Sequence record: NZ_KX443406.1
Strand: one strand, 5' to 3'
From: a plasmid
DNA length: 64,000 nt
Positions 1 to 19,283 of this stretch are shown here, in pieces. Made by a program: the position numbers and the translations under genes. Each line of letters starts with the position of its first letter. Positions within the stretch are counted from its first letter, which is position 1. The notes beneath the pieces were generated by a model. That model was given only the letters and a program-made list of their open reading frames with translations. It searched no databases and was not told where the DNA came from.

Positions 1-370
1 CCAGTCGATCGGCGGCGATAGTCCATCCCGATCCGCACTGCCTCATTGCCCGGACGTACTCGCCGGCCGGGGTGTTGACGACCGTAAACAGTAGGTCGTG
101 GCCGCCGCCGAAGCACCACCGCAGATCGCCGTCGTCGAGCGCGACGGTCTCGTCGAGCCCGTCGACGTCCGCATCGGAGTCGAGGAGCCGGTACTCGCTG
201 CGCGCCAGCATCACCAGCGACTCCCGGTGCAGCTCCCCCAGTGGTCTGTGTACGGCGATTCCGTCCCCCAGATCCAGGGAGTGAATGGGGCCGAGTTCGA
301 AGTCGAGATCCAGCTCCTCGCCGTTGCCCGCGTGCAGGCGCATGAACATGCTCTCCGTCGTCGTTTCCAT
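1..370 (-). CDS. hypothetical protein, partial (C-terminus beyond window start)
   Basis: Minus-strand reading frame with strong GC3 bias runs from an ATG (revcomp of cat at 368-370) preceded by GGGGAAGGA SD to the window edge. Translation MGMETTTESMFMRLHAGNGEELDLDFELGPIHSL... is not in the ORF track because it is truncated. Confidence 0.4.
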   Translation of the reverse strand, partial: METTTESMFMRLHAGNGEELDLDFELGPIHSLDLGDGIAVHRPLGELHRESLVMLARSEYRLLDSDADVDGLDETVALDDGDLRWCFGGGHDLLFTVVNTPAGEYVRAMRQCGSGWTIAADRL

Positions 371-494
371 CCCCATTCCTTCCCCTACCTGCATCTTTGC
401 AGTCGGCCCGAGTCGTCTCATTGCAAACTGCAATATTGCTGTTTACACTACGCCCGTACCTGATCGATCCGACAAACTCGAGGGGGCGGAGGAA

Positions 495-671
495 ATGGCC
501 GACGAGATGTACAAGCTCGCGTGGCAGATGCGTAGCGAAGGCGCCGGATGGAAGGTTGTCGCCGAGGAGCTGGGCTGCGCGGTGGACGTCGCGAAACTGA
601 TGGTGGCCCAATACGAAAGCGATACGGACGAACGAGCTGCGCGAGATCAGTTCGCGCTCTTCGATATCTGA
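495..671 (+). CDS. small HTH-like protein (58 aa)
   Basis: ATG at 495 preceded by AGGGGGCGGAGGAA SD. MADEMYKLAWQMRSEGAGWKVVAEELGCAVDVAKLMVAQYE resembles a sigma-region-4/HTH fold. GC3-rich. Confidence 0.4.
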   Translation: MADEMYKLAWQMRSEGAGWKVVAEELGCAVDVAKLMVAQYESDTDERAARDQFALFDI

Positions 672-720
672 GAACAACCCGGCGGCGTGTGCCTAACACC
701 CGCCAGGGCAGGGGAATTCA

Positions 721-909
721 ATGACAGTGCTACTCATCTTCAACGCGCTCGCATCGTTGAGCGCGATCGTCTGCGCACAGCGGTCCTACCGCCGCCACGG
801 CGTCGCCGGCCGAGCCTTTGTGGCCGGTCTCGGGGGGCTCTTCATTCTCCCGTTGGTCGTCGTTCTGGCGGTCGCTGTGGCCGCTCCACGAGCAACGCGA
901 ATCGGCTAG
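721..909 (+). CDS. small hydrophobic membrane protein (62 aa)
   Basis: ORF with two predicted TM helices (LLIFNALASLSAIV, GLGGLFILPLVVVLAVAVAA). SD-like GGGCAGGGGAA upstream. Confidence 0.3.
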   Translation: MTVLLIFNALASLSAIVCAQRSYRRHGVAGRAFVAGLGGLFILPLVVVLAVAVAAPRATRIG

Positions 910-1108
910 CGGAGAGCGTTGGTGAAACACTATAAAACCGCAGGTCACGGGCTGTTTTTGTGGGCCCGGATCGGGTAAGATCGACCTCGAAAACGTCCCC
1001 GAAACGGGGGGGAACTACGCCCGAGATCGGGCGCAGTCGAGGAGGTCGTTGTGGCACGCGAGGACGTCGGTCAAGGCGCGTTCGAGTTCGAAGGATCGGG
1101 AGGACGGG

Positions 1109-1753
1109 ATGGCACCGCAGGACGAGGAGTTCCTGACACAGGTCGAGGGGATCGACCTGTTCATAGCCGAGGAGACGCGGCGGATTCTGACCGAGTGGGT
1201 CGGGATCGACCCGGAGCTGACGCCGGAGGCCGCGCAGGAGCAGATCAATCGGGAGGCGCTGCGGCTGCAGAAGCTGACGGAGGAGGCAGCAGAGGACTTC
1301 GAGCGGGCAACGCCGCCGACGACGGATTCGACGTACTGGGACGCGGTGCAGACGAAGGAGTCGGCATGGCGGGCAGCGCGGGAGACGGTCCTCGAACAGG
1401 AGCTGTACCCGCAGGTGACGCCCGAAATGCGGGCGGAGAGAGCGGAGTTCGACGCACAGATCGAACGCGAGATCGAGACGCAGCAGGACGCGGCCCGGAA
1501 GAAGCAGGATCCGGACCGGTGGCGGAGCCTGAACGTGCGGCCGATGCCGGCAGCGGAGCGGGTCGTCGAGCGGGTGTGGCTGGCGAAGGGTCCCCGGTTC
1601 CGCAGTCTGGCCCGAGCGCTGGTCGCGCAGCGGATCGAGGACGATCAACCGGTGCCGATGACCGGACGCGACCCGATCGCCGACGAGCTGGCGCAGATGA
1701 TCGACGACGAGATCCAGCGAACCCCGGAGATCGACCCAGAGCTGCCGTTCTAG
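1109..1753 (+). CDS. acidic coiled-coil hypothetical protein (214 aa); possibly N-terminal part of the downstream giant gene
   Basis: ATG 1109 after GGGAGGACGGG SD. Protein-like acidic sequence (LTEWVGIDPELTPEAAQEQINREALRLQKL...), whereas the overlapping frame called from 1051 is Gly/Arg-rich off-frame noise. Ends at TAG 1751-1753; the giant ORF frame is open immediately across this stop in the -1 frame. Confidence 0.5.
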   Translation: MAPQDEEFLTQVEGIDLFIAEETRRILTEWVGIDPELTPEAAQEQINREALRLQKLTEEAAEDFERATPPTTDSTYWDAVQTKESAWRAARETVLEQELYPQVTPEMRAERAEFDAQIEREIETQQDAARKKQDPDRWRSLNVRPMPAAERVVERVWLAKGPRFRSLARALVAQRIEDDQPVPMTGRDPIADELAQMIDDEIQRTPEIDPELPF

Positions 1754-1755
1754 CT

Positions 1756-4700
1756 CAGGCCGAATGGTCGCAGGTCCGTGACGAACTCGTCGGGATCGAG
1801 CTGCAGGGCGAGTTCCTGGCCAAGAAGCTCGCCTCCGTCAACGTCGCCTTGGCGAAGGCCCAGGACCGAGGGCTGGCCGCCGGTATCGAGGTGAACAGCC
1901 GACGCGCCGCGTCCATTACCAGCGAGATCACACAGCTTCGCGCTCAGTGGCGACAGCTCTCCGCGCGAGAAGGGCTGCTGCGCAACGAGGTGCAAGCCCT
2001 CGGCATCGAACCCGAAGCGGTGCCGAAGCGGACCGTCCGTGAGGTCGCAGCGGCCCGCGAGACGTGGCGTGACCATCCGGCGACGGATGCTCAGATCCGA
2101 AAGCTCGAAGAGCTATCCCGCGAGGTCGACACGCCGTTCGATGTCGACCCGAACATCACCAAGGGCCAAGCCCACGACGCAATCTCGGGCATCCTGTCCG
2201 GGACCATCACTCAGGTCCAGTTCCGTGACCGCCCGGCGGGCCCGATGTTCATCGAGGCGGCCGAGCCGCGCCCGGAAGCGACCCAGCCCGAGATCGAATC
2301 CGCGGGGGCGGAGCCGCCGGTTCTCACGCCGCGGCCGGTCGTGGACCCGGTCGCGGAGGTTGAGCGACGGTTGATGGAGCGGTTGGCGGCGCAGGACCCC
2401 GATGCCGACGCCGCGGTAGGTGCGCAGGCCAACACCGCCGATCAGTTCCTCGACTGGGCGACCGGCCATTTCAAGGTGAAGGCGCAGGTCGCGCTGGCCG
2501 ACTTGATGAGCGAACGCGACACGCTGACCGACGAGATGTTCGTCGTGTGCCGCACGATCCTCGCGGATCCCAAGCGGTGGAGCGAGTTCGGCCACCGAGC
2601 AGCGGAGGCCTACTGGGAGGCGCACCGCGACGAACCGATCCAACATCCGACGACGACGGCCGTCGCCGACGCGATCGTCGAGGCCCGCGCGAGTGAGGAC
2701 CGCGCCGTAGACGAGCGCTATCTGGACACAGCCCAGGGTGTTCTCGCTGACGTCGTGGCCGGGGGTGCGTCGCCCGAGGAACGCGCCGAGCAGGTCGAAG
2801 CCATCCAGGACGCCCTCGACCTCGGTGCCGGCCCGGAGCTCGACGACTGGTGGGCACGTGGCCGCGCCGCGTTCGACGCAGCCACGCCGATGGATCTGCC
2901 GGCACCGGAGACCGATCCGGGCCTGGCGGCCGCGCTCGGGAAGCTGCGTAGCCGCCGTGCCCGCGAAGAGCTGACGAACCAATGGTTCGCCGGCGCCCGG
3001 CAGGGGCAGCGCGAAGCGACGGCGGATGATCGCGCGGCGCTGCTCACAGAGGCAGCGCATGACCCGCGCGTGATCGCCGAGGTCGGCGGCCGCACGACGG
3101 ACTACCTGCCGTCCTTCCAGCCACACACGACCGCGACCCGGAACGTGGTCACCGAGTTGGCCAGGGGCGGATCACCGTTGCGGCAGGCCGCCGCGCAGCT
3201 GATCCTGCGCGAACATGACCTGCCGACCGAGTTCTACGAGGCGTCGCACAGCGAGTGGCAGCGGGCGCATGGCCACGAGCTGACCTGGGACGAGACCACC
3301 CGGCAGGAGTGGACGTCGTGGATGCGGATGCAGCTGCGCCGCGATCCGCTGATCGGATCGTGGGCCGGGTATCCGATGGCCACGCGCACCTACCTCATCG
3401 AGACAGGTATCGAGACGGCGTTCGCCGTCCTCGCCGAGGAACGTCCCGATCTGGTCGAGGCGACGGCGTCCATCCCGGCATCGCGCCTCGCGGCCGAACT
3501 GCGCGGCGACATCATCCCGAACCTGTACGCCGGCGAGGATGCCGAGGCCGCGCGCACGGCGCACCTGTTCAAGAACGCGAACGGTAGCGAACTCACGCTG
3601 CGTAGCTTCGAGAACTCGACGCTGCGACCGTCCCCCGTCCGCGGCTGGGACTTCACCCTCAACGGCGGCGGAACGTCGACCACCTGCGGCCGCGATCCCC
3701 GCGTCGCCGTCGGAGCGATACTCGACGCCCGCAGCCTGCCCATCCCGGAGTGGATCGAACGCGTCTACCGTCCGTATGCGCAGGCCCGGGAGACGGTGCT
3801 GAACACGGCGGTCCTCTACGAGCGTGGCCACGAGTTCTATCACGCGGCCGCCCGCAGTGATCTGCTGTGGAAGTACGACGATCGAGGTAACGCCGCAGCC
3901 TCGTCCGACCTGGTCAACGCCGCACGTGAGTCGATCATCGAGGACCTGCGCCGCACCCTGCCCGAGGAAGTCGCGCTACTCGAGGCCACCGGCATCGACC
4001 TGGACTGGACCCTGCGGACCGACGTCGACAACCAGGTCATGCGCGACCTACGCACTGCGGGAACAGATTCCTACGGCGTCGACACCGGCGACATCAGCGC
4101 CGGACCGGCCGGGTCGATCTACGTCGGCGACCCGAACGGAACCCACGTCGTCGTCAACCGCCGCTGGGCGCAGGGCTTCACCAGCCAGGTCATCACGATC
4201 GACGACCAGGTGTACGCCGGCGTCGACACCATTCGCGACGCGATCGCCGAAGCACGAGCTCAGCTGGCGCGCAGCCCGCAGAGCACCGAGCCTACGGTCG
4301 AGACCGGCAGCAGCAATGCTCCTGCCCGCGACGAGCGAATCGTCGACGTCGAGGTCGAGGAGGCCGACCCGTCCCCGCCGCGAGTCGTAGCGCCCGTCGT
4401 CGACGACACGGGCGCGATCACCTTCGACGAGGTCGACACCGACCAGGAACCCATCATCGCCACCGGTGGCCAGGGCCAAGAGTGGGTCCTGGCAGACCAT
4501 CTCGTCGTCGGCCACATCGGCCCCGCTATCGCACCGCCGGCCGAGGTCGACACGGCGACCGCCGTCGACATCGTCGAGGAGCTCACCGCCGCATCCGGCG
4601 AGCTGATCGTCCCCGACACCGAGTTCGGCGAGCCGATCAGCAGCCCCCTGTGGCGCACCGGCGACCTGGTCAAGGTCCGCAAGGAATCCGGCGGCTACGC

Positions 4701-7700
4701 GTGGATCTCCCCCGCCACCGCAGCCCGCTACGCCTCCGAGAACGCCCCCGAAGCCGAGCCCGAGGCCCCGACTCAGCCGGAGGCCGCATCGGCGGCCAAA
4801 GCTGACGAACCAGCAGTCGAGCAGCACGAACCTCGTGCGGGCCCGCAGTCGGTGGCGGCCACCGACTTCACCCTCGGTACCGGCGTCCACGTCCCGTCGG
4901 GAGCGAAGGCCCGAGTGCGCGCGAACATCGCGGCCGCACGCCTGGTGCTCGAACTCGACGAGCAACAGCGCCCCGCCACGGCCGAGGAACAGGCCGTACT
5001 CGCCCAATGGTCGGGCTGGGGCGCGGTCCCCGAGGTCTTCGACAACCGATCGAAGTTCCTCTCCGAGTGGGCCGATGAGCGCGCCGCGCTCCTCGATCTA
5101 CTCGGCGAGAAGGGGTTCTCGCAGGCCCGCGAGACCACCCTCAACGCGCACTACACCGATCCGGCGATCGTCGGTGAGCTGTGGCGGGCGGTGCAGCGAG
5201 CAGGCCTACCCGACGGTGCGCTCCTCGTCGAGCCTGGCTGCGGGGCCGGCCACTTCGTTGGCACCGCGCCCGCCGGGGTGAACATGGTCGGCGTCGAGAT
5301 CGAGCCGATCAGCGCCAAGATCGCGCACTACCTCTATCCGTCCCAGCAGATCCGCAACCACGGATTCGAGCGCGCGTTCGCCACCGACAACACCTTCACC
5401 GGCGCCATCGGCAACGTGCCGTTCGGACGATGGGCACCGGTCGACCCGATCCACAACGCGGCCGGGCTGACGATCCACAACGCGTTCATCGCGAAGTCGT
5501 TGGCGCTCACCGCACCCGGCGGCTACGTCGCGGTCGTGACCAGCAAGTTCACCTCCGACGCCAAACGAGGCGACCAACGCGCCCAGATCGCCGCCAAGGG
5601 TGACCTCGTCGGCGCCGTGCGCCTACCGACCGGGGCATTCGATCGGCAGGCCGGCACCCCCGTCGTCACCGACGTCCTGGTGTTTCGCCGCCGCGAGGAC
5701 GACGCCCAGCCGACCCAGGACACGGTCGAATGGGCGCTGCCCGCCCGCCAGATCGCGGTCACGGACGCCAAGACCGGTGAAGCCGAGACCTACTGGATCA
5801 ACTCCTACTTCCAGAAGCACCCGGAGCGGGTCCTCGGCAGACTCGCGGTCGGCAACGGACAGCACGGCAACCAAACCCTGATCGTGCAGCCGGACACCGC
5901 GACGCCGCTCGCCGAGCAGCTCCGCGGACAGCTCGACCCGATCATCGACCAGGCCGTCGAGCAGGGACTCGGATTCACCGCCGCAGCACCGAATCCAGCG
6001 GACGTCGAGGTGCACACCGCGCCGGGGCTGCGCACCGGGGCCGACCTCGACTCGTCCGAGGTCCTGCCGGGCACGATGCGGTTCAACGAGGTCGACAGCC
6101 GGTTCGAGCAGTTCACCGTCGGTCGAGGATGGAGCGAGGTCAACTGCCGCGGCAAGGATCTGGCCGAGCAGTGGAAGAAGCTCATCGCTCTCGGCGAGAC
6201 CGTCATGGAGCTGTCCGAGGCCAGCCGGGACGCCGCCAGCACTGTCGCCGGCCGGGACGTCATCCGCGGCCGCCTCAACGGCCTCTACGACGACTACACC
6301 CGCCGATGGGGCCCGCTCAACCGATTCAAGCTGACCGCCCCTAAGCCTCTGACCGAGGAGAAGATCGCCGATCGTCTCGACAAGGCGATCACGAAATGGC
6401 GGGAGAAGGTCGGGCGCGCCGAGGCGATCGCCGACGGAATCGACCCAGAAGACGCCGGCCCCTACACCGGGTCCATCCCCGACGATGTTCTCGAAGAGAT
6501 GCAGGAGAAGGCGGCCGAGGAACCGAAGCCGCAGAAGAACCAGCATCACCTGCAGGGCGCGATTGCCCGGGATCCCCGTCTGGGCATGGTCCTGGCGATC
6601 GAGGACTTCCAGTCCCGGTTCGACGGCACCGACGCCGTGGCCACCAAGTCCGCGATCTTCACCGAGGACACCACTCCGTTCAAGGGGAGGGCGCAGTCGG
6701 CGGCCGACATCGACGAGGCCCTGGCCATCTCGTTCGACGAGCTCGGACACATCTCGCCGGCACGCATGGCCGAGCTGCTCGACCTGTCCGTCGACGAGGT
6801 CCTCGACCGGGCGGACGGGCGGATCTACCCGTCCCTGCAGGCCTCCGACCAGTGGGAGCTGGCGACCGTCGCACTCTCCGGCCAGGTGCGCAGCAAGTTG
6901 GCGATCGCCCAGATCCGGGCCACCGACGACCCGCGACGCTACGCCGGACTGGTCACCGCCCTCGAGGGAGTCATCCCACCGGATGTGGACCCCACCGACA
7001 TCGGCGTTCGCCCAGGCGCAACGTGGATCCCGGTCGAGGACTACCGACAGTTCCTCATCGAAGAGTTCGGGCTCAACCCCCGCCGCCTGACCGTCGAGCA
7101 CGACGAGGTGACCGGCAACTGGAAGATCGCCACCGAACAGTCCAGCCGCCACCAGGTCCACACCGGATACGCCGACAAGTACGGCAACTCCCGACTGACC
7201 GGCGTGCAGATGATGGAGCTGATCGCCAACAACAAGCCGGTCCAGGTCAACAAGACCAAGGAAGAGCTTGAGTTCTCCCCGAAGCCGCGGTTCCACGTCA
7301 AGATGACCGAGACCGCTCAGTCGGCAGCGAACGCGCTGCAGGAGCGGTTCGAGAAGTGGCTGTGGTCCGACGGCGACCGATACCTGCGGCTGGCGAAGGC
7401 GTTCAACGAGAAGCACAACAGCTTCGTCAAACCCGCACACAGCGGGGAGCACAAGAGCTTCCCCGGGCTGAATCCGAAGTACAAGCCGTACGACTACCAG
7501 GCGGCCGCGGTGCAGCGGTTCCTCCACGACGAGACGATCCTGCTCGACCACGTCGTCGGCGCCGGCAAGACCGTGACCATCACGACCTCGTGCATGGAGG
7601 CCAAGAGGCTCGGGCAGATCAACCAGCCCTGGATCGTCGTTCCGAACCACCTGCTCGCGCAATGGTCGGCCGAGGCCCGGGACGCCTACCCGAACGCGAA

Positions 7701-10700
7701 GATCCTCGTCGCGTCGGAGCTCGACGGCCGCGACGACCGCCAGCGGTTCGTCGGTCAGACCGCCGTCGGCGACTGGGACCTGGTCATCGTGCCGCAGTCC
7801 GTGTTCGGTCTCATCGGTATGCGCCGGGAGGCACAGATCGAGTACCTCGAAGGTGAGATCACCGAGCTGCGCATCGCACTCGACGCCGCGAACGAGCGGG
7901 GCGCGGAGTTCTCGGTGAAGCAGATCGAGAACGCGATCAAGGGCGCCACCAGCAAGATCGAGAACCTCGTCGCCGCCAAATCGACCGACGAAGGACTCAC
8001 GTTCGAACAGTCCGGAGCAGACTTCCTGTTCGTCGACGAGGCGCACGACTACAAGAACCTCACACGCCCGTCGAACAGCACGGACCTGTCAGTCGCCGAC
8101 GGCAGCCAACGCGCAACCGACCTCGAAATGAAGGCCAAATACCTACGCGAGCAGGCGCACCGCCGCAACGCCGAACGTGGACTGCCGAACGCGCCGGCCA
8201 AGGCCATCGCGTTCGCCACCGGCACCCCGATCACGAACTCGCTGTCGGAAATCTGGGTGATGATGAAGTACCTGCGCCCAGACCTGCTCACCGAGGCCGG
8301 TCTCGGCCGCATCGACAACTGGGCGGGCACCTTCGCCAAGCCGGTCACCGTCGCGGAAATGAACGCCACTGCCACTCGCCTGCAGATGAAGACCCGCATG
8401 GCTGAGTACGCCAACGTCCCACAGCTGGTCGCAATGTACGACCAGTTCCGCGACGTCGTGACTTCCGATCAGATCCCGGTGCGACTGCCCGAGATGGAAG
8501 GCGGCGCACCAACGATCGTCGAGTTCGACATGGGACAGGACGCGATCGACGCTGTCGCGGACCTCGACGTGCGGTTGGCGAACATCAACGGCGACCGGAT
8601 GGACCTCGACAACAGCCTCAAGGTCAGCACCGACGGCCGCAACCTCACCATGCACCCACGCCTGGCGAACCTGCCGGCGCCCGCCCCGGAGAACAGCCGG
8701 GTCGAGCACGCAGCCGATCTGATCTGGCAGTGCCATGCCGACAACGCCGACGTGCAAATCCCCGCCGACAAGTACGGCCCCGAGATGACGGGTGTCTTCC
8801 AGTTGGTGTTCTGTGACCGCGGAACGCCGAAGGCCGGCAGTGGCCCACGCGCCCGCAACGTCTACACCGAGCTGCGTGACGCGCTCGTCGAGCGTGGCAT
8901 GAAGCCCGAAGAGATCGCCTTCATGCATGACTACGACAACCCGAAGGCGAAGGCGAAACTGGTCGAGGCGTGCGCCGACGGCCGCATCCGCGTGCTCATC
9001 ACGTCGACGAAGAAGGGCGGCACCGGACTCAACGTCCAGCGCGCCCTCAAGCAGATGGTCAACCTCGACCCCGCGTGGACGGCCGCGGACATGGAGCAGC
9101 GGATCGGCCGCATCATCCGGCAGGGCAACGTCAACGAGACGGTCAGCGTCGTGAACATGGTTGCCCGCCGTTCCTACGACGCGATGATGTACCAGTACGT
9201 CGCTCGCAAGGCGAGCTTCGTGGGCATGATCCGCAAGGCCGACCTGCCGCCGTCGATGGAAGACATCGGCGGAGACCTGGCGGCGTCGTGGGCGCAGTCC
9301 AAGGCCGCCGCCACCGGTGACCCGGTGTTCGTCCAACAGGTCGAGGCCGATCAGAGGGTGGCGAACCTCGAAGCCCGCCGCGACGCCGTCCTCAACGCCA
9401 ACGCCGCACGCAACGCGGCGATCCGGGGCCTGCAGGCGAACATCACCGCCACCGAGAAGCAGATCCCCGAGCTGCGCGGGACCACCGACAAGCTCAACGA
9501 GTGGGCGCAGATCGAGGACCGTGCAGCGAAGATGTGGAACTTCCCGACCGGACCGGTCGCCGACGGCGATACCGCCGATCTCGGTGACGCACTCCGTCAC
9601 GCCCTCATCAACACCACCGGCGAGGTCACCAAATCCAAGGACGAGGTGCCGTTCGTCGTGCTCAACGGCGTCCCCGTCAAGCTCGCCTACGTCCAGGTCC
9701 TCGGCGAGTTCTACATCTCGGTCGGTGGCATGGAGAAGTGGTACGACCGCGATCAGATGAACAACGTCCTCGAACGTGCCAGCACCGCACAGGGAATGCT
9801 GGGCACCATTCGGCGTCTCGCCGCGGCCGCCACCGAGCGCATTCCAGCGATGGAAGCACAGCTCGAACGGGACCGCGAGAAGCTCGCTGCAGCGCAGGCC
9901 GAACCGGAGCTCGAGTTCACCCAGACCGCTGAACTCGACAATGCCCGGCTCGAAGCCGACGAGCTCCGCCTGGAAGTCAACGCGCGCGAGAACTCCCCCG
10001 AGGCGCTGCGTCGGGCAGAGACAGAGCGCGAGCGGCGGGCCGCGGACGGGCAGTACGAACGGTGGACTCTCGACCTCAACCCGACCGAGGCGTGGGCCGA
10101 ACAGAACGGAATGAGCAGGGAGGAACTGATCGCATCCGTGCCGGCGAAGATGGCGGCCGCGCGCCAGGCGTGGGCCGATCAGGCCGAGGCACGCGAGGCC
10201 AATCGGAAGTCGCAGCCCTGGGTCGCGACCAACGCCACCGAGGCTGTGTGGCAGTACGGTTTCGACGCCGAGTCGAAGATGCCCGGCGCACGAATCAGCT
10301 GGAACGACCGACAGTGGAACTGGGAAGCGTGGGACGGCCAAGGCTCGGTGGACACCGACACCGCCAACACCCGCGGCGAGGCGTTCGGCCGGGCCGCCCG
10401 AGCTGCCGGCGAGTTCGCACAGGCGAACGACATCCCGGAATCGGCACTGCGCGAAGCAAGCATCGAACGGCGCCAGCGCCTCGAGGGCGAGGACGCCGTC
10501 GTGGAACCGACCGAGCCCGTGGCAGCGGCGGACAGTGCCGTAGTCGAACCGACAGAGCCGATCACCGAGACGTCGATCGACGGCAGCATCGCCCGCGGAC
10601 TCGGCGCCGGCACGAACCTGCGGCCGCTGCGCGACCTGAGTGCCGCCGAGCCGCCGAACGACGTCGGGGCAGCGGCCGAGGAGAGTCGGCCAAACGAGAG

Positions 10701-10740
10701 AGAACTCGACCTCGGCGAGGACGACGGCCGCGCGGTCTGA
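1756..10740 (+). CDS. giant N6-adenine DNA methyltransferase / SNF2-family helicase fusion protein (DarB-like, putative anti-restriction or DNA-modification protein)
   Basis: Continuous GC3-rich frame to TGA 10738-10740. MTase motif I VEPGCGAGHFVG (~nt 5220-5260) and motif IV NVPFG (~5413) are followed by helicase Walker A DHVVGAGKTVTIT (~7550-7590), DEAH box FLFVDEAHDYKN (~8030), and helicase C motifs LITSTKKGGTGLNVQ / QRIGRIIRQGN (~9000-9130). No good in-frame ATG near 1756 (first is at 2243; GTG 1879 and TTG 1846 are candidates), so the true start is uncertain or the protein is fused to the 1109..1753 ORF. Confidence 0.75.
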   Translation, partial: QAEWSQVRDELVGIELQGEFLAKKLASVNVALAKAQDRGLAAGIEVNSRRAASITSEITQLRAQWRQLSAREGLLRNEVQALGIEPEAVPKRTVREVAAARETWRDHPATDAQIRKLEELSREVDTPFDVDPNITKGQAHDAISGILSGTITQVQFRDRPAGPMFIEAAEPRPEATQPEIESAGAEPPVLTPRPVVDPVAEVERRLMERLAAQDPDADAAVGAQANTADQFLDWATGHFKVKAQVALADLMSERDTLTDEMFVVCRTILADPKRWSEFGHRAAEAYWEAHRDEPIQHPTTTAVADAIVEARASEDRAVDERYLDTAQGVLADVVAGGASPEERAEQVEAIQDALDLGAGPELDDWWARGRAAFDAATPMDLPAPETDPGLAAALGKLRSRRAREELTNQWFAGARQGQREATADDRAALLTEAAHDPRVIAEVGGRTTDYLPSFQPHTTATRNVVTELARGGSPLRQAAAQLILREHDLPTEFYEASHSEWQRAHGHELTWDETTRQEWTSWMRMQLRRDPLIGSWAGYPMATRTYLIETGIETAFAVLAEERPDLVEATASIPASRLAAELRGDIIPNLYAGEDAEAARTAHLFKNANGSELTLRSFENSTLRPSPVRGWDFTLNGGGTSTTCGRDPRVAVGAILDARSLPIPEWIERVYRPYAQARETVLNTAVLYERGHEFYHAAARSDLLWKYDDRGNAAASSDLVNAARESIIEDLRRTLPEEVALLEATGIDLDWTLRTDVDNQVMRDLRTAGTDSYGVDTGDISAGPAGSIYVGDPNGTHVVVNRRWAQGFTSQVITIDDQVYAGVDTIRDAIAEARAQLARSPQSTEPTVETGSSNAPARDERIVDVEVEEADPSPPRVVAPVVDDTGAITFDEVDTDQEPIIATGGQGQEWVLADHLVVGHIGPAIAPPAEVDTATAVDIVEELTAASGELIVPDTEFGEPISSPLWRTGDLVKVRKESGGYAWISPATAARYASENAPEAEPEAPTQPEAASAAKADEPAVEQHEPRAGPQSVAATDFTLGTGVHVPSGAKARVRANIAAARLVLELDEQQRPATAEEQAVLAQWSGWGAVPEVFDNRSKFLSEWADERAALLDLLGEKGFSQARETTLNAHYTDPAIVGELWRAVQRAGLPDGALLVEPGCGAGHFVGTAPAGVNMVGVEIEPISAKIAHYLYPSQQIRNHGFERAFATDNTFTGAIGNVPFGRWAPVDPIHNAAGLTIHNAFIAKSLALTAPGGYVAVVTSKFTSDAKRGDQRAQIAAKGDLVGAVRLPTGAFDRQAGTPVVTDVLVFRRREDDAQPTQDTVEWALPARQIAVTDAKTGEAETYWINSYFQKHPERVLGRLAVGNGQHGNQTLIVQPDTATPLAEQLRGQLDPIIDQAVEQGLGFTAAAPNPADVEVHTAPGLRTGADLDSSEVLPGTMRFNEVDSRFEQFTVGRGWSEVNCRGKDLAEQWKKLIALGETVMELSEASRDAASTVAGRDVIRGRLNGLYDDYTRRWGPLNRFKLTAPKPLTEEKIADRLDKAITKWREKVGRAEAIADGIDPEDAGPYTGSIPDDVLEEMQEKAAEEPKPQKNQHHLQGAIARDPRLGMVLAIEDFQSRFDGTDAVATKSAIFTEDTTPFKGRAQSAADIDEALAISFDELGHISPARMAELLDLSVDEVLDRADGRIYPSLQASDQWELATVALSGQVRSKLAIAQIRATDDPRRYAGLVTALEGVIPPDVDPTDIGVRPGATWIPVEDYRQFLIEEFGLNPRRLTVEHDEVTGNWKIATEQSSRHQVHTGYADKYGNSRLTGVQMMELIANNKPVQVNKTKEELEFSPKPRFHVKMTETAQSAANALQERFEKWLWSDGDRYLRLAKAFNEKHNSFVKPAHSGEHKSFPGLNPKYKPYDYQAAAVQRFLHDETILLDHVVGAGKTVTITTSCMEAKRLGQINQPWIVVPNHLLAQWSAEARDAYPNAKILVASELDGRDDRQRFVGQTAVGDWDLVIVPQSVFGLIGMRREAQIEYLEGEITELRIALDAANERGAEFSVKQIENAIKGATSKIENLVAAKSTDEGLTFEQSGADFLFVDEAHDYKNLTRPSNSTDLSVADGSQRATDLEMKAKYLREQAHRRNAERGLPNAPAKAIAFATGTPITNSLSEIWVMMKYLRPDLLTEAGLGRIDNWAGTFAKPVTVAEMNATATRLQMKTRMAEYANVPQLVAMYDQFRDVVTSDQIPVRLPEMEGGAPTIVEFDMGQDAIDAVADLDVRLANINGDRMDLDNSLKVSTDGRNLTMHPRLANLPAPAPENSRVEHAADLIWQCHADNADVQIPADKYGPEMTGVFQLVFCDRGTPKAGSGPRARNVYTELRDALVERGMKPEEIAFMHDYDNPKAKAKLVEACADGRIRVLITSTKKGGTGLNVQRALKQMVNLDPAWTAADMEQRIGRIIRQGNVNETVSVVNMVARRSYDAMMYQYVARKASFVGMIRKADLPPSMEDIGGDLAASWAQSKAAATGDPVFVQQVEADQRVANLEARRDAVLNANAARNAAIRGLQANITATEKQIPELRGTTDKLNEWAQIEDRAAKMWNFPTGPVADGDTADLGDALRHALINTTGEVTKSKDEVPFVVLNGVPVKLAYVQVLGEFYISVGGMEKWYDRDQMNNVLERASTAQGMLGTIRRLAAAATERIPAMEAQLERDREKLAAAQAEPELEFTQTAELDNARLEADELRLEVNARENSPEALRRAETERERRAADGQYERWTLDLNPTEAWAEQNGMSREELIASVPAKMAAARQAWADQAEAREANRKSQPWVATNATEAVWQYGFDAESKMPGARISWNDRQWNWEAWDGQGSVDTDTANTRGEAFGRAARAAGEFAQANDIPESALREASIERRQRLEGEDAVVEPTEPVAAADSAVVEPTEPITETSIDGSIARGLGAGTNLRPLRDLSAAEPPNDVGAAAEESRPNERELDLGEDDGRAV

Positions 10741-10763
10741 CGCGCCATAAGATCGGATCAACG

Positions 10764-10796
10764 GGTGGAGCGAGGCACATTCGGTCTCGCTCCACC
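10764..10796. terminator. perfect 11-bp inverted repeat (GGTGGAGCGAG-11nt-CTCGCTCCACC) just downstream of giant gene stop
   Basis: Read directly from sequence. Hairpin without T-tract, as is common for actinobacterial intrinsic terminators; could alternatively be an operator for the downstream TA pair. Confidence 0.4.
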
Positions 10797-10818
10797 CCGC
10801 ACGCACTGAGGGGGAACT

Positions 10819-11007
10819 ATGAGCACCGAGAGAATCAGCGAAGCCGAAGCACGAGAGGCGTACGAGCGCCTGGCCCCGATCGTGGAGATGGGCGGAGCAA
10901 CCGTCGACCCGCGCGACGAGGAACTCACCGTGCAACTGCTGCAGGGCACCATCACCTTCGAGGAGATGACGGCCACCGTCCTGCGCGAGGCGGGCATCGA
11001 CAAGTGA
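10819..11007 (+). CDS. VbhA/FicA-like antitoxin (62 aa)
   Basis: ATG 10819 after GAGGGGGAA SD. TVDPRDEELTVQLLQGTITFEEMTATVL parallels VbhA (EPDPQVVAQMERVVVGELETSDVIKDL). The stop overlaps the Fic GTG start (GTGA at 11004-11007). Confidence 0.5.
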   Translation: MSTERISEAEAREAYERLAPIVEMGGATVDPRDEELTVQLLQGTITFEEMTATVLREAGIDK

Positions 11008-11996
11008 GCAAGCCCCGGGGCTTCTCGCAAGAGTGGGTCGACTACTTCATCCCCGAGACCGTCTCGTACGACCCGCAGACTGGGTGGCCGAATCTCGACG
11101 ACGCCGTCATGCGCAACCTCATCGCGGTCGATCTGGGTTTCGAGCATGGTCTGCCCGACCAGACCATCGTCGACCGCCTTGAGGTTGCGTCCTCGATCAA
11201 GCGGCTGCACGAGCTCGAACGAGACCCCATCCCGGGGAACTACGACCTCGCTCACATGCAGCGGATCCACCATCACCTGTTCCAGGACGTCTACCCCTGG
11301 GCCGGCGAGATCCGTACAGCGCCGCGGGACTGGCCGATGACGAAGCTGGGCCCGAACGTCAAGGCCCACCTTGCCGGTGAGCCGAACCCGCCCGAGGTCC
11401 CTCACTCCTATTTCGCCGCGAAGGAGATCGTTCCGATCGCCGGGCGAGAACTCGACCGCATCGCCGCGAAAGACAATCTGCGGGGCCTGGACCGAGACCA
11501 GTTCGTTGACGAGCTGACGACGGTGTGGGCGCGGGTGAACTACGTCCACCCGTTCCGGGAGGGAAACACCCGAACGCAGTTCGCGTTCTTCCGGCAGCTC
11601 GCGGCCGAGGCCGGCTACGAACTCGACACCGAGCGATTCCGCGACGCCGTCAGCGCACCGGGCGCTGACAACGCCGTCGCCGGTGACCTACGCACGAAGT
11701 TCATCTGGGGCCGGTTCCAGTTCCAGCAGACCGGCGAAACGACGCTCCTACGGGAAGCTCTCGACGAAGGAATACGGCCGACACCCGAGGCCGATGCAGG
11801 AGAGGATCTGCCCGTCGGCCCGATCATCGAACGAGGCTACGACGTGAGCGCTCTGAGTGCCGCAGCAGCAGGGCATCCGCGGTCGACCGGGGCGATGCTC
11901 GGGTACAACGAGGCAGCGCATGTCGCCGGGCATCCGGCTCCGGCGGACGTCGAACTAGCGCACGGCCACACTGCCGATAGCGGGTACGAGCGGTAA
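11004..11996 (+). CDS. Fic/Doc-family protein with non-canonical active-site motif HPFREGNTRTQF
   Basis: GTG 11004 (VSKPRGFSQEW...) is translationally coupled to the upstream small ORF. Fic core motif HPFx(D/E)GN(G)R is present as HPFREGNTRTQF (G to T, second Arg absent). The track ORF from 10062 is an upstream off-frame extension. Confidence 0.65.
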   Translation: MSKPRGFSQEWVDYFIPETVSYDPQTGWPNLDDAVMRNLIAVDLGFEHGLPDQTIVDRLEVASSIKRLHELERDPIPGNYDLAHMQRIHHHLFQDVYPWAGEIRTAPRDWPMTKLGPNVKAHLAGEPNPPEVPHSYFAAKEIVPIAGRELDRIAAKDNLRGLDRDQFVDELTTVWARVNYVHPFREGNTRTQFAFFRQLAAEAGYELDTERFRDAVSAPGADNAVAGDLRTKFIWGRFQFQQTGETTLLREALDEGIRPTPEADAGEDLPVGPIIERGYDVSALSAAAAGHPRSTGAMLGYNEAAHVAGHPAPADVELAHGHTADSGYER

Positions 11997-12006
11997 GGAC
12001 TCATCG

Positions 12007-13634: not shown

Positions 13635-14177
13635 TCAGAACAGGATGCCTTGGTCTGGACCGGGATCAGTCTTCGCCCGGAGTAGTGCAACTTCGTCATA
13701 GCCGTCTCGGAGCGCATCGCGGATATCGAGCGACCGCTGATAGCGCGAGCGCCCCTGGCCGTCGAGAAAGGTGTGGCCTGACAGTCGGCCGAGCGCGATT
13801 GCGTATCTCACGTTCTCGCTGTGCGTCGACTTCACCAAGTGCGCGTGTCCCACCCGCACGCACAGCGGCTCGTTGCACTTGTGCTCGCACACGACACCAT
13901 CACCGAGCGGCCCGTGCACCAGTTCGACCGAGAAGCGATGCGCCAGCATCGTGCGCTGACGATTGTCTCGTTGGAAGTTGAACCGTCCGTACCCATCGGG
14001 CGCACTGATCGCTCCGACCCAGTACCAACACGTCGGCGACTTCACGACCTTCGACCAGAACGACGCGACGTTCTCAGCCGAGGGTTGAAGGGTGTTGTCG
14101 ACCACCCGGACGCGCGACGGACGCGCCGACGCCGGCGCATCGAAGTCGAAGCCGAAGAGCGGCTCGTCGTCGACCAC
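13635..14177 (-). CDS. HNH homing-type endonuclease
   Basis: Motifs FWSKVVKSPTCWYWVGAISAPDGYGRF and HRFSVELVHGPL..VCEHKCNEPLCVRVGHAHL are typical of HNH_3 / AP2-like HNH nucleases. Confidence 0.7.
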   Translation of the reverse strand: MVDDEPLFGFDFDAPASARPSRVRVVDNTLQPSAENVASFWSKVVKSPTCWYWVGAISAPDGYGRFNFQRDNRQRTMLAHRFSVELVHGPLGDGVVCEHKCNEPLCVRVGHAHLVKSTHSENVRYAIALGRLSGHTFLDGQGRSRYQRSLDIRDALRDGYDEVALLRAKTDPGPDQGILF

Positions 14178-14191
14178 CGCTCACAGATCCG

Positions 14192-15014: not shown

Positions 15015-18000
15015 ATGACCGTCCACAAGCTCAGTGCTGGGGACGGCTACGTCTATCTCACGAAGCATGTTGCGGCCGGCGACGCGACCGAGTCCCGCAA
15101 GGCTGACGCGGTCGACTACTACGTCGCGAAGGGCACCCCACCGGGGATCTGGTGCGGAAAGCTCGCCGAGAAGGCCGGCGTGGAGGTCGGTACCGAAGTC
15201 ACCGAGGACGCAATGCGTTCGGTGTTCGGTGCGGCCCGCACCCCGAACGCCTTCGCCACCCGGCCCGGCAAGGGCTCGACGCTGGACGAGCGCCTCGACT
15301 GGTCCGAGAGCACTGCTCTCGGACGGGCGTTCTCCTGGTACGAGAACAGCCAGGAGTTCGTGAACGACGTCGAGGAGCGGTGCTCGGCGTACAAGGCCAC
15401 TTACGGCGAGTACCCGGATTCCGCTGCGCGGGCTGCGATCCAGCAGACCACCGCACGCAAGCACTTGCGGCGCGCCAAGGGTGACAAGGTCGACCTGATG
15501 AGCGACGAGGATGTCACCAAGTTCATCACCGAGCAGTACGCGAAGATGCGCCAACCGGTGGCCGGGTACGACCTGGTGTTCACGCCGGTGAAGTCGATCT
15601 GTCTGCTGTGGGGTCTCGGCGACGCCCAGGTGAAAGAGGCTGTCGAAGAGGCACATAAGCAGGCCGTCGACGAGGCCCTCGCCTGGATCGAGGACGAGGT
15701 GATCTACACCCGTCGCGGGGCCGGCGGCGCCCGCAAGGTCAAGGCCGAGGGGCTGCTGATCGCACGGTTCGACCACTTCGACAACCGTGTCGGTGATCCG
15801 AACCTGCACACCCATTCCGCGATCCTGAACCGGGTACTGGCAGAGGGAAAGTGGACGACGATCGACGGCCAGGTGCTCTATAAGGCGAACGTTGCTGCGT
15901 CGGAGCGCTACAACACGCGCGTCGCCGATCTGGTCGCGCGCAAGCTCGGCGTCACCTTCGCCCCGCGCCCCGATACCGCCGTCGGCAAGCAGCCGGTGTA
16001 CGAGGTCGAGGGCATCCCCGTCGGGCTGCTCGAGGAGTTCTCACGACGCGCCCAGATCGAGGATCGACAGGCCGAACTCGCACGCGAGTACAAGGACAAG
16101 TACGGCAAGAACCCGCCGAAGAAGGTGCAGTACGCGCAGGCGCAGCAGGCGACGCTGGACACCAGGAACGCGAAGAACCCGCCACGATCGTTGGCAGAGT
16201 TGCGCGCCGAGTGGCGCGAGCGTGCGTCCGCGATTCTCGCGGGCTCCGACCCCAGCACACTGGTCGACGAGGTGCAGTCCGGTCGCGATCGGCGCCCTGC
16301 GTTCTACGCCCCGCAGCTACCTGCTCTCGTGCAGGAAGTGACCGACGATCTTTCGCGCAAGGTCGGTTCGTGGACCGTATTCTCTCTGCAGGCCGAGATT
16401 CAGCGTCGGCTGCGAGAGTTCAGTTTCGCGGGCGAGATGGACGTCAACGAGTACGTCTCGGACGCGGTCGATCTCGCCGTCCGCGACTACTGCCTGCCCA
16501 CCTTCACAGAGGTCTACGACGCACCGGAGAGTGTCAGCGAACGCGTCGAGCGTGGGTTGCGACGAATGGTCGACGTCGATCGGGCAGAGATGCGATACAC
16601 CGCGCAGGCGGTGCTCGACGCCGAAGAGTTCATGCGTGACAACGCGGAGATCGACGACGAGCACACCGTCGCCGAACGCGTCATCCGCCGCCAGATCCGA
16701 CGAGCGGAGAAGAAGGCCGGACACACCCTCGGATCCGACCAGATCGCGATGATCGAGCACTTCCTCACTGCGAGGAAGAAGGTCGCCGTCGCTGTCGGTG
16801 CGGCGGGCGCCGGCAAGACCACCGCGGCGACAGTGATCGCCCGCGCATGGGAAGACATCAACGGAAAGGTGGTCGCTCTCGGGCCGTCGGCACGTGCCGC
16901 AGAAGTGCTCGGGGAGGAGATTTCCGTCGAAGGACGCACGATCGCGGATGTGCTCACCCGTGCCCGCGTCGGCATCCCGACCGGCATCGACAGAGGCGAT
17001 CTTCTGCTCGTCGACGAAGCCGGTATGGCCTCTGCTCGCGACCTCGCGGACCTCACCCGCATCGCGACCGAAGCAGGCGCAGTCGTCCGCCTGCTCGGTG
17101 ATCCCCAGCAGCTCGCCTCCGTCGAAGCTGGCGGCGTTCTGCGTGATCTGGCCGAGCGAACCGACGCCCCGTTCCTCGAACAGGTTCACCGGTTCAAGAC
17201 CGAGGGCGAAGCCGAAGCCAGCCTGCTTCTGCGTTCCGGAGCCGACAACGCCCTTGACTGGTACGAGCGCCGTGACCGCATCCGTGACGGAATGCGGCAC
17301 GAGCTGCCCGACATGGTTTTCGACGCGTACGTCGCCGACGTCGAGGCCGACAAGGTTGCCCTCATGGTCGCCCCGACGAACGACCTGGTCCGCGACCTCA
17401 ACATCAAGGCCGCCGCGTACTACCGCGCCAACGGCACCGTCACCGGACCCGGCGTCGTTCTCGCAGACGGCCTTGAGGCCGCCGTCGGCGACGTCGTCGT
17501 CACCCGCAAGAACAACAGCAAGTACGTCGTGAAGGACGCCGACGGACAACGGTCCGGGCGCGTGAAGAACGGTGACCTGTGGACCGTCTCCGAGATCGGT
17601 GAAGATGGTTCACTGCGCCTGCGGAACAACGTCTCCGACGGCGAGGTGACCGTCGCAGCCGACTACATCACCGACAACGTCCAACTCGGCTACGCAACGA
17701 CGGTGCACCGGTCGCAGGGCATGACCGTCGGTAGCTGTCACGTCCTCGCGGCCGCGAACATGGACCGCCAGTCGCTGTACGTCGCGATGACTCGCGGCAA
17801 GAACACGAACATCGTCTACGCCGCCAACGACGAGCTACCCGACTGGGACTTCGAGCATCGGCCGGACGAGCATCCGGCCGCGATCGACCTTCTCAACAAG
17901 ATCGTCGCCCGCGATGGTTCGCAGCGAACCGTGCACCAGATGATCGAGGACGAGCAGCGCCAAGCCGCGTCGTGGGACCGACTGCGCAGCACCCACAACC

Positions 18001-19283
18001 TCGCGGTCGGCGCGCTCTACGAGAATCTGACCGAGAGCCTTCTCGGCGAGATCCTCACCGAACGCCAGTTCTCGTGGGTCCACCAGCTCGGCGGCTGGGA
18101 CAAGATCGTCGAGATCGTCGCGCAGTCCGAAACCTTCGGCTGGGACACCCGCGCCTTGTTGTCGGATGCGGCCGCGGCGATGCGTGCTGCCGGAAAGGCG
18201 GGCGAGCTCGACAGCGAGCGTCGCGCTCCGGGCCGCGTGATGGCCGATGCCCTGCAGGCTGCGACGAGTCGGGAGAACAGCACCCCTCTCCCCCGCACTC
18301 GCACCGACGCGGTGGCCGGATACTCGGTGCCGGCCCTGAGCGAGGCTGCGGCCGAAACCGATCCGATCCTCGCCGCCTACGTCCAATCGCAGCAGCAGCA
18401 GATGCACGCGTTCGTCGACGCGTACACGACCGCGGCCATCGCCGAGAACGCCGGATGGGTGACGGCAATGGGCGACCCAGGGACGGACTCGCGGAAGATC
18501 GCGATGTGGGAGAAGGCGGTTCGCGAGGTCGCGCTCTCCCGCGTCAAGAACTCCGCGCCGGCCGACGAATCCGACCCCGTGGCGTACCTGACCGCGACGC
18601 GCGCCGAACAGATCACACGAGTGATCGACAGGGTGCAGTCCGCACCGGCTCGACGCTCCCCCTACGCCGATCACACCGCTGCCGAACTCGCGGCCGCGCG
18701 TGAATCGAGTAAGCGGCGGATCGGCGAGACCCGGACCCTCATCGCTCTGGCGAGGCAGGAGCTCGACCGCGCACAGGGCAAGGATTCAGGCACCGCGGCC
18801 GTCGATTCCACGGTCGCGGCCGTCGCGGCGGACGAGCAGAAGATCCACGCCGTGCGGCAGGCCCGGGAAGACCTGGAACTGCTGCGCCGCTCCGGTGTCG
18901 CCACTCGCGATCAGCTCGACAGCGCCGCCCGGGCGGTAGCGGCCGCAGAGGCAGCCGCGCCCCCGGAACGCCGTTGGCCCGTGATCGAGAGGTCCGCACA
19001 GTCGAATCGTGCGATCGCTGCGCAACGCGCCCGCGCCCACGTGACGGACGAGCGCGTCGTCGGAAAGCTCAACGACCGCATCGCCCGCTTGGAGACGTCG
19101 CTGGCGGCCGAGCGCGGGCACCTCAAGTCGATCGACACGGAGATCGAGCACCGTGACGGCTCCGGGACACCCGGCTCCGGGCGGCGCGACGCTCGCGGCA
19201 CGCAGCGACCCACAGGGCCGCCGATCGGGCGGGAAGAGGCTCCGCGCGTCGACCGCGATCACGGACCAGACCTGGATATGTGA
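15015..19283 (+). CDS. traA: MobF-family conjugative relaxase-helicase (TrwC/TraA-like)
   Basis: N-terminus MTVHKLSAGDGYVYLTKHVAAGD is TrwC-like. His-triad motif HFDNRVGDPNLHTHSAILN is present, and the C-terminal half carries Walker A AVGAAGAGKTT (RecD/TraA-like helicase). ATG 15015 is chosen over upstream ATG 14988. Confidence 0.85.
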   Translation: MTVHKLSAGDGYVYLTKHVAAGDATESRKADAVDYYVAKGTPPGIWCGKLAEKAGVEVGTEVTEDAMRSVFGAARTPNAFATRPGKGSTLDERLDWSESTALGRAFSWYENSQEFVNDVEERCSAYKATYGEYPDSAARAAIQQTTARKHLRRAKGDKVDLMSDEDVTKFITEQYAKMRQPVAGYDLVFTPVKSICLLWGLGDAQVKEAVEEAHKQAVDEALAWIEDEVIYTRRGAGGARKVKAEGLLIARFDHFDNRVGDPNLHTHSAILNRVLAEGKWTTIDGQVLYKANVAASERYNTRVADLVARKLGVTFAPRPDTAVGKQPVYEVEGIPVGLLEEFSRRAQIEDRQAELAREYKDKYGKNPPKKVQYAQAQQATLDTRNAKNPPRSLAELRAEWRERASAILAGSDPSTLVDEVQSGRDRRPAFYAPQLPALVQEVTDDLSRKVGSWTVFSLQAEIQRRLREFSFAGEMDVNEYVSDAVDLAVRDYCLPTFTEVYDAPESVSERVERGLRRMVDVDRAEMRYTAQAVLDAEEFMRDNAEIDDEHTVAERVIRRQIRRAEKKAGHTLGSDQIAMIEHFLTARKKVAVAVGAAGAGKTTAATVIARAWEDINGKVVALGPSARAAEVLGEEISVEGRTIADVLTRARVGIPTGIDRGDLLLVDEAGMASARDLADLTRIATEAGAVVRLLGDPQQLASVEAGGVLRDLAERTDAPFLEQVHRFKTEGEAEASLLLRSGADNALDWYERRDRIRDGMRHELPDMVFDAYVADVEADKVALMVAPTNDLVRDLNIKAAAYYRANGTVTGPGVVLADGLEAAVGDVVVTRKNNSKYVVKDADGQRSGRVKNGDLWTVSEIGEDGSLRLRNNVSDGEVTVAADYITDNVQLGYATTVHRSQGMTVGSCHVLAAANMDRQSLYVAMTRGKNTNIVYAANDELPDWDFEHRPDEHPAAIDLLNKIVARDGSQRTVHQMIEDEQRQAASWDRLRSTHNLAVGALYENLTESLLGEILTERQFSWVHQLGGWDKIVEIVAQSETFGWDTRALLSDAAAAMRAAGKAGELDSERRAPGRVMADALQAATSRENSTPLPRTRTDAVAGYSVPALSEAAAETDPILAAYVQSQQQQMHAFVDAYTTAAIAENAGWVTAMGDPGTDSRKIAMWEKAVREVALSRVKNSAPADESDPVAYLTATRAEQITRVIDRVQSAPARRSPYADHTAAELAAARESSKRRIGETRTLIALARQELDRAQGKDSGTAAVDSTVAAVAADEQKIHAVRQAREDLELLRRSGVATRDQLDSAARAVAAAEAAAPPERRWPVIERSAQSNRAIAAQRARAHVTDERVVGKLNDRIARLETSLAAERGHLKSIDTEIEHRDGSGTPGSGRRDARGTQRPTGPPIGREEAPRVDRDHGPDLDM

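Follow-up and report, generated by a model that had tools for sequence, protein, structure and literature searches.

Plasmid record NZ_KX443406.1, of which a 64,000-nucleotide (nt) stretch was analyzed (hereafter, the window), carries a giant gene for a DarB-like methylase-helicase and, at the 5′ end of this gene and in another frame, a 214-codon open reading frame that we call ORF1. The original prediction treated the two as one split gene, joined by a −1 frameshift or broken by a sequencing indel, or else gave the giant a late start of its own downstream of ORF1. That view is probably wrong, as none of the three explanations fits. We consider it probable that the giant is not split, and that it is a single uninterrupted open reading frame (ORF) of 3,229 codons beginning at GTG 1051, with ORF1 nested inside it out of frame. 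The evidence consists of the frames themselves, start sites that are conserved, sequence conservation across relatives, and signatures of selection. Most likely, the two genes form a conserved and unannotated pair that has been missed by current annotations. All elements of the pair described below lie on the + strand.

In the model that we favor, ribosomes would initiate the giant at GTG 1051, behind the Shine-Dalgarno (SD) sequence GAGGAGG (1039..1045, read from the sequence, 5 nt upstream of the GTG), and would read through to 10740. ORF1 (1109..1753) would be a separate gene, in the +1 frame relative to the giant and within the first 700 bases of the latter, with its own SD and ATG, and ending at a conserved Pro-Phe-stop. 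Translation of both frames would mean that the 645 bases of ORF1 are read in two ways. The ORF1 frame would yield a folded, acidic, helical protein with native codon usage, and the giant frame a segment of ~215 amino acids (aa) that is rich in Gly, Ala, Arg and Asp, devoid of stops, Cys and Lys, and presumably disordered. This overlapped segment would lie between a short, conserved peptide at the N-terminus and the remainder of the giant, possibly as a flexible tether. It corresponds to aa 20-234 of the giant, and is 70% Gly, Ala, Arg or Asp and 7% hydrophobic. In overprinted pairs, one frame keeps the codon usage of the genome and the other is compositionally odd and disorder-prone, and the composition of the giant segment is that expected of such an overprinted, disordered stretch (PMC3744397; bioRxiv 10.1101/229690). 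The model predicts giant-frame peptides GVPDTGR and VGMAGSAGDGPR from aa 1-234 of the giant, as well as the tryptic peptide AAVLAQAEWSQVR across the junction at the end of ORF1.

Our comparison draws on 26 related loci, which include Hoyosella and in which identity of the giant N-terminus falls to ~28%. Members of the set are Rhodococcus plasmids (L003-L005), a Logan contig (L010), 15 genome loci (L013-L027), four distant plasmid loci (L028-L031, including one from Hoyosella subflava) with giant N-termini ~28-33% identical, and further distant contigs (L034, L035). The lineages are diverged, with third-position identity of 0.48-0.75 versus a composition baseline of 0.44. In all 26 loci, a giant-frame SD (GAGGAGG or GGAGG) and a GTG or ATG codon are conserved 55-64 nt upstream of the ORF1 start; in the distant loci, the arrangement is GGAGG and then ATG as the giant-frame start. 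The spacer between the two start codons measures 55, 58, 61 or 64 nt, every indel being a multiple of three. Stops in the giant frame occur shortly upstream of the start codon, as near as 15-18 nt in some loci, and none occurs for >3,000 codons after it. The 19 codons that belong to the giant only (1051..1107; alignment A2 and translations) encode VAREDVGQGAFEFEGSGGR. In the window, GTG 1051 opens the conserved peptide VAREDVGQGAFEF, the distant loci have MA.R.DDQxxLFS, and the consensus is [MV]-A-x-x-[DN]-x-[DN]-Q-x-x-[FL]-x-[FS]. In L004, an ORF1-frame stop comes right after the giant start, indicating that this upstream start cannot serve ORF1. The SD and GTG at 1039-1053 had been overlooked in the original prediction. 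ORF1, for its part, is preceded by the SD GGGAGGA (1098..1104, also read from the sequence), which lies 4 nt upstream of ATG 1109 and inside the giant ORF. In relatives, a GGAGG-like SD is kept before the ORF1 start while the giant-frame residues encoded there vary. Thus, neither frame is interrupted in the overlap, each has a start codon and a ribosome-binding site of its own, and this layout is conserved in the 26 loci.

As a separate observation on this leader, an inverted repeat (GCCCG-AGAT-CGGGC, 1019-1032) lies 7 nt upstream of the giant SD. Relatives carry equivalent GCCC...GGGC repeats with differing loops (alignment A2), and the 106-nt leader containing the inverted repeat is conserved in 63 plasmid records, in one copy each. 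A scan of 1-12000 against Rfam gave zero matches, and a promoter and terminator scan of 300-2000 gave nothing informative.

The far end of ORF1 is equally well defined. As originally predicted, ORF1 runs from ATG 1109 to TAG 1751-1753 and encodes an acidic protein of 214 aa (isoelectric point, 4.4). GC content at third codon positions (GC3) is 0.82-0.93 in the ORF1 frame up to ~1750, and then there is a sharp switch to the giant frame, which is −1 relative to ORF1. It had been proposed that the giant frame opens exactly at this point. The −1 relation and the GC3 switch stand, but the giant frame is already open from 1051, being listed as a single ORF of 3,229 codons up to 10740, and TAG 1751-1753, which had been taken to bound it, is a stop in the ORF1 frame only. 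In every locus, if ORF1 is in frame f, then the giant is in f−1. The junction CCG TTC TAG (1745..1753) reads Pro-Phe-stop in ORF1 and x-Val-Leu in the giant frame, and CC(G/C)TTC followed by TAG, TGA or TAA is invariant (26 of 26 loci). That all three stop codons occur at the end of ORF1 implies selection for termination as such. In the giant frame, residues are conserved from the junction onward, Q2 and W5 of the post-junction sequence being invariant, and conservation continues through an N-terminal domain region at 1753..3252 (alignment A1).

Across relatives, selection is evident in both frames of the overlap. In every locus tested (24 loci; 14 lineages), the giant frame contains zero stops over the last 200-210 codons of ORF1, where synonymous-codon shuffles of ORF1 give an expectation of 0.7-4.1 stops per locus (P(0), 0.003-0.43) and ~33 pooled over the 14 lineages. 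As a control, the −1 frame of the giant gene itself contains 31 stops versus 39.5 expected, with at least one stop in 13 of 14 blocks of 210 codons. A natural control is provided by a stand-alone ORF1 homologue with no giant downstream, which contains 4 stops in the −1 frame versus 5.2 expected. Codon context tells a similar story. When an ORF1 codon has T as its last base (125 cases), the next codon begins with C 93.6% of the time, against a background of 30.5% and a value of 37.5% for the non-overlapping giant control in the same loci; this rule makes the T-first codons of the giant frame almost all serine. Pooled residue counts of the giant frame in the overlap (observed/expected) are 0/19.6 for Cys, 0/13.5 for Lys, 3/9.8 for Tyr, 27/54.7 for His and 186/91 for Ser, and Lys and Cys codons are absent from the overprinted segment in 12 of 12 lineages. 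The sole explanation that we offer for the missing Lys and Cys codons is that their absence keeps the linker inert; that missing Lys reflects avoidance of pupylation targets is speculation. Finally, synonymous-site conservation is 0.654 in ORF1 versus 0.498 in the adjacent, non-overlapping region of the giant, and is higher in ORF1 in 74 of 78 locus pairs. A ribosome that shifted frame or restarted where ORF1 ends would require none of these features (stop-free frame, codon context, residue depletion, synonymous conservation). More generally, comparing the stops and residues of an alternative frame with those expected from synonymous shuffles, with a stand-alone homologue as control, offers a cheap and reusable way to tell "frameshifted" from "nested" in high-GC genomes.

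Judged from its sequence, ORF1 is an independent protein. Its homologues fall into 65 clusters of ~205-260 aa, and a check for the ORF1 product at the N-termini of giant homologues, suggested by the original prediction, came out negative, with 0 of the 65 clusters fused to a giant. Among relatives, amino-acid identity is 40-70% and GC3 is 0.88. P0063, which at 39% identity is the most distant of the homologues, occurs on its own, no giant following it. An AlphaFold2 model of ORF1 (mean predicted local distance difference test score, 84.9) is all-helical, the last ~10 residues being of low confidence. No match to ORF1 was found in Pfam, NCBIfam or PHROGs, and a Foldseek search of the model against the PDB yielded no match (best E = 2.1). 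The protein ends in ...DPELPF, and a C-terminus of the form D-P-(D/N/E)-(L/M/V/T)-P-F-COOH (1724-1753 in the window) is seen in 25 of 27 homologue clusters. Stand-alone homologues P0063 and P0064 end 8 residues earlier and are without the DPxLPF tail. A requirement for a free C-terminus of ORF1 would explain the invariant Pro-Phe-stop. SSB, the protein that binds single-stranded DNA, has a C-terminal acidic tip, ...DDDIPF-COOH (PMC7145534, PMC4137731). Like this tip, the disordered acidic tail of ORF1 ends in (L/M/V)-P-F-COOH; unlike SSB, ORF1 is predicted to be all-helical and has no oligonucleotide/oligosaccharide-binding fold, and the apparent resemblance is of a short motif only.

Several points weigh against the nested arrangement. 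The basis of the whole analysis is computational, and long same-strand overlaps in bacteria are usually mis-annotations, which sets the prior. The long giant ORF is called by no annotator or gene caller. The 19-codon peptide shows almost no codon-position periodicity (entropy of 0.51, 0.55 and 0.59 at the three positions), and in the spacer the two frames are not told apart by GC3 (giant, 0.71; ORF1, 0.74). Inside the overlap, GC3 of the giant frame is only 0.35-0.55, which is expected for an overprinted frame but also fits a non-coding one. With respect to the statistics, the product of the per-locus probabilities, ~1e-19, overstates significance because the loci share ancestry and are not fully independent. 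Cys, Lys and Tyr were singled out as avoided residues after the data had been seen, and the stop test alone was a priori. Lastly, the stronger codon bias of ORF1 may account in part for its higher synonymous identity.

An unlikely but not far-fetched alternative is that these are two ordinary adjacent genes. The giant would then start independently at TTG 1849 or GTG 1891 or, through termination-reinitiation at some non-canonical codon, right at the junction or close by, with CTGA forming the overlap in relatives that use TGA, and the open upstream frame would be a by-product of high GC. The gene is indeed annotated in this way, both by the NCBI Prokaryotic Genome Annotation Pipeline (PGAP), which places the RefSeq start at TTG 1849..1851 (2,963 aa), and by the original submitters, whose record CAQ30280.1 starts at GTG 1891..1893 (2,949 aa). 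The low GC3 of the giant frame upstream of 1750 is also in line with adjacent genes, as is the CTG start, overlapping the ORF1 stop, that PGAP assigns in L005; overlap of a stop and a start over four bases is a widespread mode of translational coupling. However, conservation reaches upstream of every canonical start, extending 96 nt beyond TTG 1849, which is probably not the true N-terminus of the giant as judged from the alignment. The first canonical start past the junction lies anywhere from +53 to +344 nt, at positions that are not homologous among relatives, and the PGAP starts themselves are inconsistent (+98 nt in the window, +53 in L003, +206 in L004, and the CTG of L005). Moreover, CTG overlaps the ORF1 stop only in TGA loci; the corresponding codon is CTA, which is not near-cognate, in TAG and TAA loci, including the window, and in the loci compared the stretch from the junction to the invariant Trp contains no other conserved near-cognate codon. 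Conservation from the junction onward, together with the lack of a conserved start there, implies that giant-frame translation must arrive from upstream. Nor do adjacent genes account for the upstream SD and start, for spacer indels that are all multiples of three, for a giant frame free of stops and depleted of Cys and Lys, or for the T-then-C rule.

A start downstream of ORF1, one of the options originally put forward, is thus unlikely. Its two candidates, TTG 1846 and GTG 1879, were misplaced, the in-frame codons being TTG 1849-1851 and GTG 1891-1893; the statement that no in-frame ATG occurs for ~490 nt past the junction was correct. Giant-frame starts that lie within ORF1, at −157, −175 and −232, were also considered and rejected. 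Conserved Trp codons in ORF1 (xxG TGG) explain them; they do not count as independent evidence, and the conserved upstream giant start makes them superfluous.

We consider it very unlikely that a programmed −1 frameshift takes place where ORF1 ends (CCG UUC UAG), by which a fraction of ribosomes would make a ~3,200-aa fusion, although this was the option preferred originally. In its favor, the −1 relation and exact abutment of the two frames are conserved in 26 loci, the nine junction bases are invariant, and a stop codon in the A site can stimulate slippage in the P site. Nonetheless, no locus contains a slippery heptamer (X XXY YYZ) in the 0 frame at the overlap, the junction being (C/A/G)T(G/T/A) CC(G/C) TTC plus the stop, and re-pairing of tRNA-Phe from UUC to GUU or CUU would be mismatched at the first position. 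A conserved hairpin or pseudoknot 5-9 nt downstream was not found either; for 13 lineages, RNAalifold returned −0.23 kcal/mol with 4 trivial pairs and without covariation, and the 112 nt of the window fold no better than shuffles (z = −1.1). None of the 65 ORF1 clusters contains a fused homologue, a result that reflects gene calling rather than proteomics, and the Pro-Phe terminus, retained whichever of the three stop codons follows, suggests that a free C-terminus is functional. Frameshifting would also leave unaccounted for both the giant-frame start upstream and the purifying selection on the giant frame over the full length of ORF1.

That the frame change is an artefact or decay of a single ORF1-giant gene, through a sequencing or assembly indel or a recent inactivating frameshift, has next to no likelihood: a single-base change of frame at one point does look like an indel, and one related copy (L036) is truly broken over several frames, but the comparative data refute sequencing error and pseudogene alike, because the identical layout is found in >25 independently sequenced Prescottella equi plasmids and in relatives with giant N-termini of ~28-33% identity, including another family, Hoyosellaceae, the stop is maintained as TAG, TGA or TAA, and no fused homologue exists among the 65 ORF1 clusters. 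In L036 (R. ruber pYYL1.2, NZ_CP024891.1), ORF1 and the giant N-terminus are scattered over several frames at 2370-4490; this copy is either a decayed pseudogene or an error-rich assembly, and was dropped as a "relaxed" control for being too decayed or error-ridden. Another unusual locus is L031 (R. opacus PD630 plasmid 2, CP003951.1), where 2280-3260 is a tandem duplication of the end of ORF1, the junction and the start of the conserved region of the giant, and where the record annotates the giant as two pieces.

As for the giant itself, the assignment to DarB-like methylase-helicase polyvalent proteins holds at the level of profiles and motifs, in agreement with the original prediction. The PHROGs profile phrog_10089, "DarB-like antirestriction," matches aa 1238-3070 (E 5.8e-292; profile positions 1536-3290 of 4647), and thus homology to DarB spans the methyltransferase-helicase dyad. 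Together with Pfam matches, this defines a core at 4762..10260, in which an adenine methyltransferase (MTase) is followed by an SNF2-type helicase. The motifs quoted originally are all found. The N6-adenine MTase has an S-adenosylmethionine-binding motif I, VEPGCGAGHFVG (5227-5262, aa 1393), and a catalytic motif IV of the (D/N)PP(Y/F)-like type, NVPFG (5413-5427, aa 1455). C-terminal to it, the SWI2/SNF2-type superfamily 2 helicase has its motifs at 7558..9129, namely GAGKT (7558), DEAH (8035) and motif VI, QRIGRIIRQGN (9097), with Pfam (ResIII, SNF2-rel_dom, Helicase_C) and NCBIfam matches; in the PDB, the giant matches the Snf2/Rad54 helicase 1z63 (E 6e-5). The MTase region is also matched by phrog_11801, "DNA methyltransferase," and the Pfam scan of the giant returned no MTase family at E<0.01. 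The family of the N-terminal domain comprises 18 representatives at 50% clustering in an exhaustive HMMER search; a word-indexed protein search with the giant N-terminus gave 5 matches, swamped by low-complexity words. Precomputed Pfam annotations of the giant homologues L010, L012, L034 and L035 include PF28553 (WH_1), PF28554 (DUF8437) and PF28555 (Helicase_dom), none of which was reported at E<0.01 in the Pfam scan of the window giant. Homology to P1 DarB and possession of the methylase-helicase dyad of polyvalent proteins suggest that the giant would most likely protect incoming plasmid DNA from restriction.

How the two products might act together is a more tentative matter. Residues 8-13 of the giant, QGAFEF (1072-1089), fit the pattern Q-x-x-(L/F)-(F/x)-(x/F), and the distant loci have QPSLF, QQQLF and QYDLF. 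We take this pattern to resemble β-clamp-binding motifs. The motif is degenerate in L003, L005 and L035 (NYDQF in L035), which weakens the β-clamp idea to a low-probability lead. We can imagine, while giving the scheme little credence, a true dual-coding overlap in which both products dock to replisome hubs, the giant through a β-clamp peptide on a ~215-aa tether free of Lys and Cys, and ORF1 through its SSB-tip-like ...DPxLPF-COOH. Between them, the two would recruit the methylase-helicase to the incoming strand, newly replicating and coated with SSB, which would be modified before restriction by the host. An N-terminal peptide on a long tether, co-encoded with a partner that has an SSB-tip-like tail, suggests a possible targeting route for a plasmid DarB-like protein.

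The window is 100% identical, at the same coordinates, to plasmid pVAPB1475 (NZ_KX443397.1) of Prescottella (Rhodococcus) equi, which came from a porcine isolate in Hungary (PMC5434932). Plasmid pVAPB1593 matches the window with an offset of 68 nt, and >20 pVAPA plasmids are 98.8-99.3% identical across the locus region. By plasmid typing, the element is conjugative, with a MOBF relaxase and MPF_T mating-pair formation. The giant/ORF1 locus lies 4.3 kb upstream of the mobF gene (15015..19283) in the window and directly downstream of mobF in L028 and L029. Two small ORFs precede the locus directly, at 495-671 (58 aa) and 721-909 (62 aa); they are annotated at equal positions in pVAPA and pVAPB, and in two distant Rhodococcus plasmids, L003 and L004, ORF1 is likewise preceded, at matching positions, by ORFs of similar size. 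Directly after the giant comes a Fic-family gene (11004..11996), overlapped by 4 nt by a 62-aa ORF (10819..11007). The same pair of 62-aa ORF and Fic gene follows the giant in L003-L005, and looks like a Fic toxin with a small partner. In L003 (R. pyridinivorans pGZ03), the macrolide-resistance gene erm(46) lies just downstream of the giant-Fic module, at 13968-14780, indicating that the module travels on resistance plasmids related to the R. equi backbone.

If confirmed, the overlap described here, 214 codons long and kept in Nocardiaceae and Hoyosellaceae plasmids, would rank among the longest conserved regions reported in bacterial replicons in which one strand codes in two frames. Overlaps of this kind are scarce, and pipelines for annotation tend to discard them. 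The 3,229-aa product is absent from a collection of 15 billion proteins, and in an exhaustive HMMER search the gene calls of long homologues start downstream of the junction, the sole exception being P0100, which starts inside the overlap. In pVAPA and pVAPB, the virulence plasmids of R. equi, and in many Rhodococcus plasmids for catabolism or resistance, every database probably lists the largest gene 266-280 codons too short.

Programmed −1 frameshift fusions are known from dnaX (tau/gamma), IS3-family orfAB and the phage tail-chaperone genes G/GT. As in these systems, the upstream ORF ends at the very point from which the coding signal carries on in the −1 frame. Unlike them, the present locus has no slippery heptamer or stimulatory structure, and its −1 frame has a conserved upstream start of its own and appears to be under selection far from the junction. 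A closer parallel may lie in nested, same-strand, out-of-frame genes, such as mobB in mobA (RSF1010), Rz1 in Rz (phage lambda) and comS in srfAB (B. subtilis). In these as in our case, a complete gene with its own ribosome-binding site is embedded on the same strand in another frame of a larger gene. ORF1 differs from them in being long (214 codons) and in apparently representing the older frame, as it has native GC3 and a stand-alone homologue. Furthermore, the overprinted part would be an N-terminal extension or linker of the host gene, and dual translation is proposed here from sequence.

With regard to the giant, a "DNA methylase-helicase dyad" has been described in polyvalent proteins of phages and conjugative elements (Iyer et al. 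2017, PMC5512222). Like P1 DarB and other proteins with this dyad, the giant appears to have an EcoKI/TaqI-like adenine MTase directly upstream of a SWI2/SNF2-type helicase, in a single very large polypeptide encoded by a mobile element. Unlike P1 DarB, it is borne on an actinobacterial MOBF/MPF_T conjugative plasmid rather than packaged in virions, ~1,200 of its N-terminal residues lie outside the DarB-like core and include a domain of a tiny family, and its 5′ end overlaps a nested gene. Most likely, then, the pair adds to two known kinds, overprinting (PMC8227390, PMC3744397, PMC9927249) and the DarB-like polyvalent proteins.

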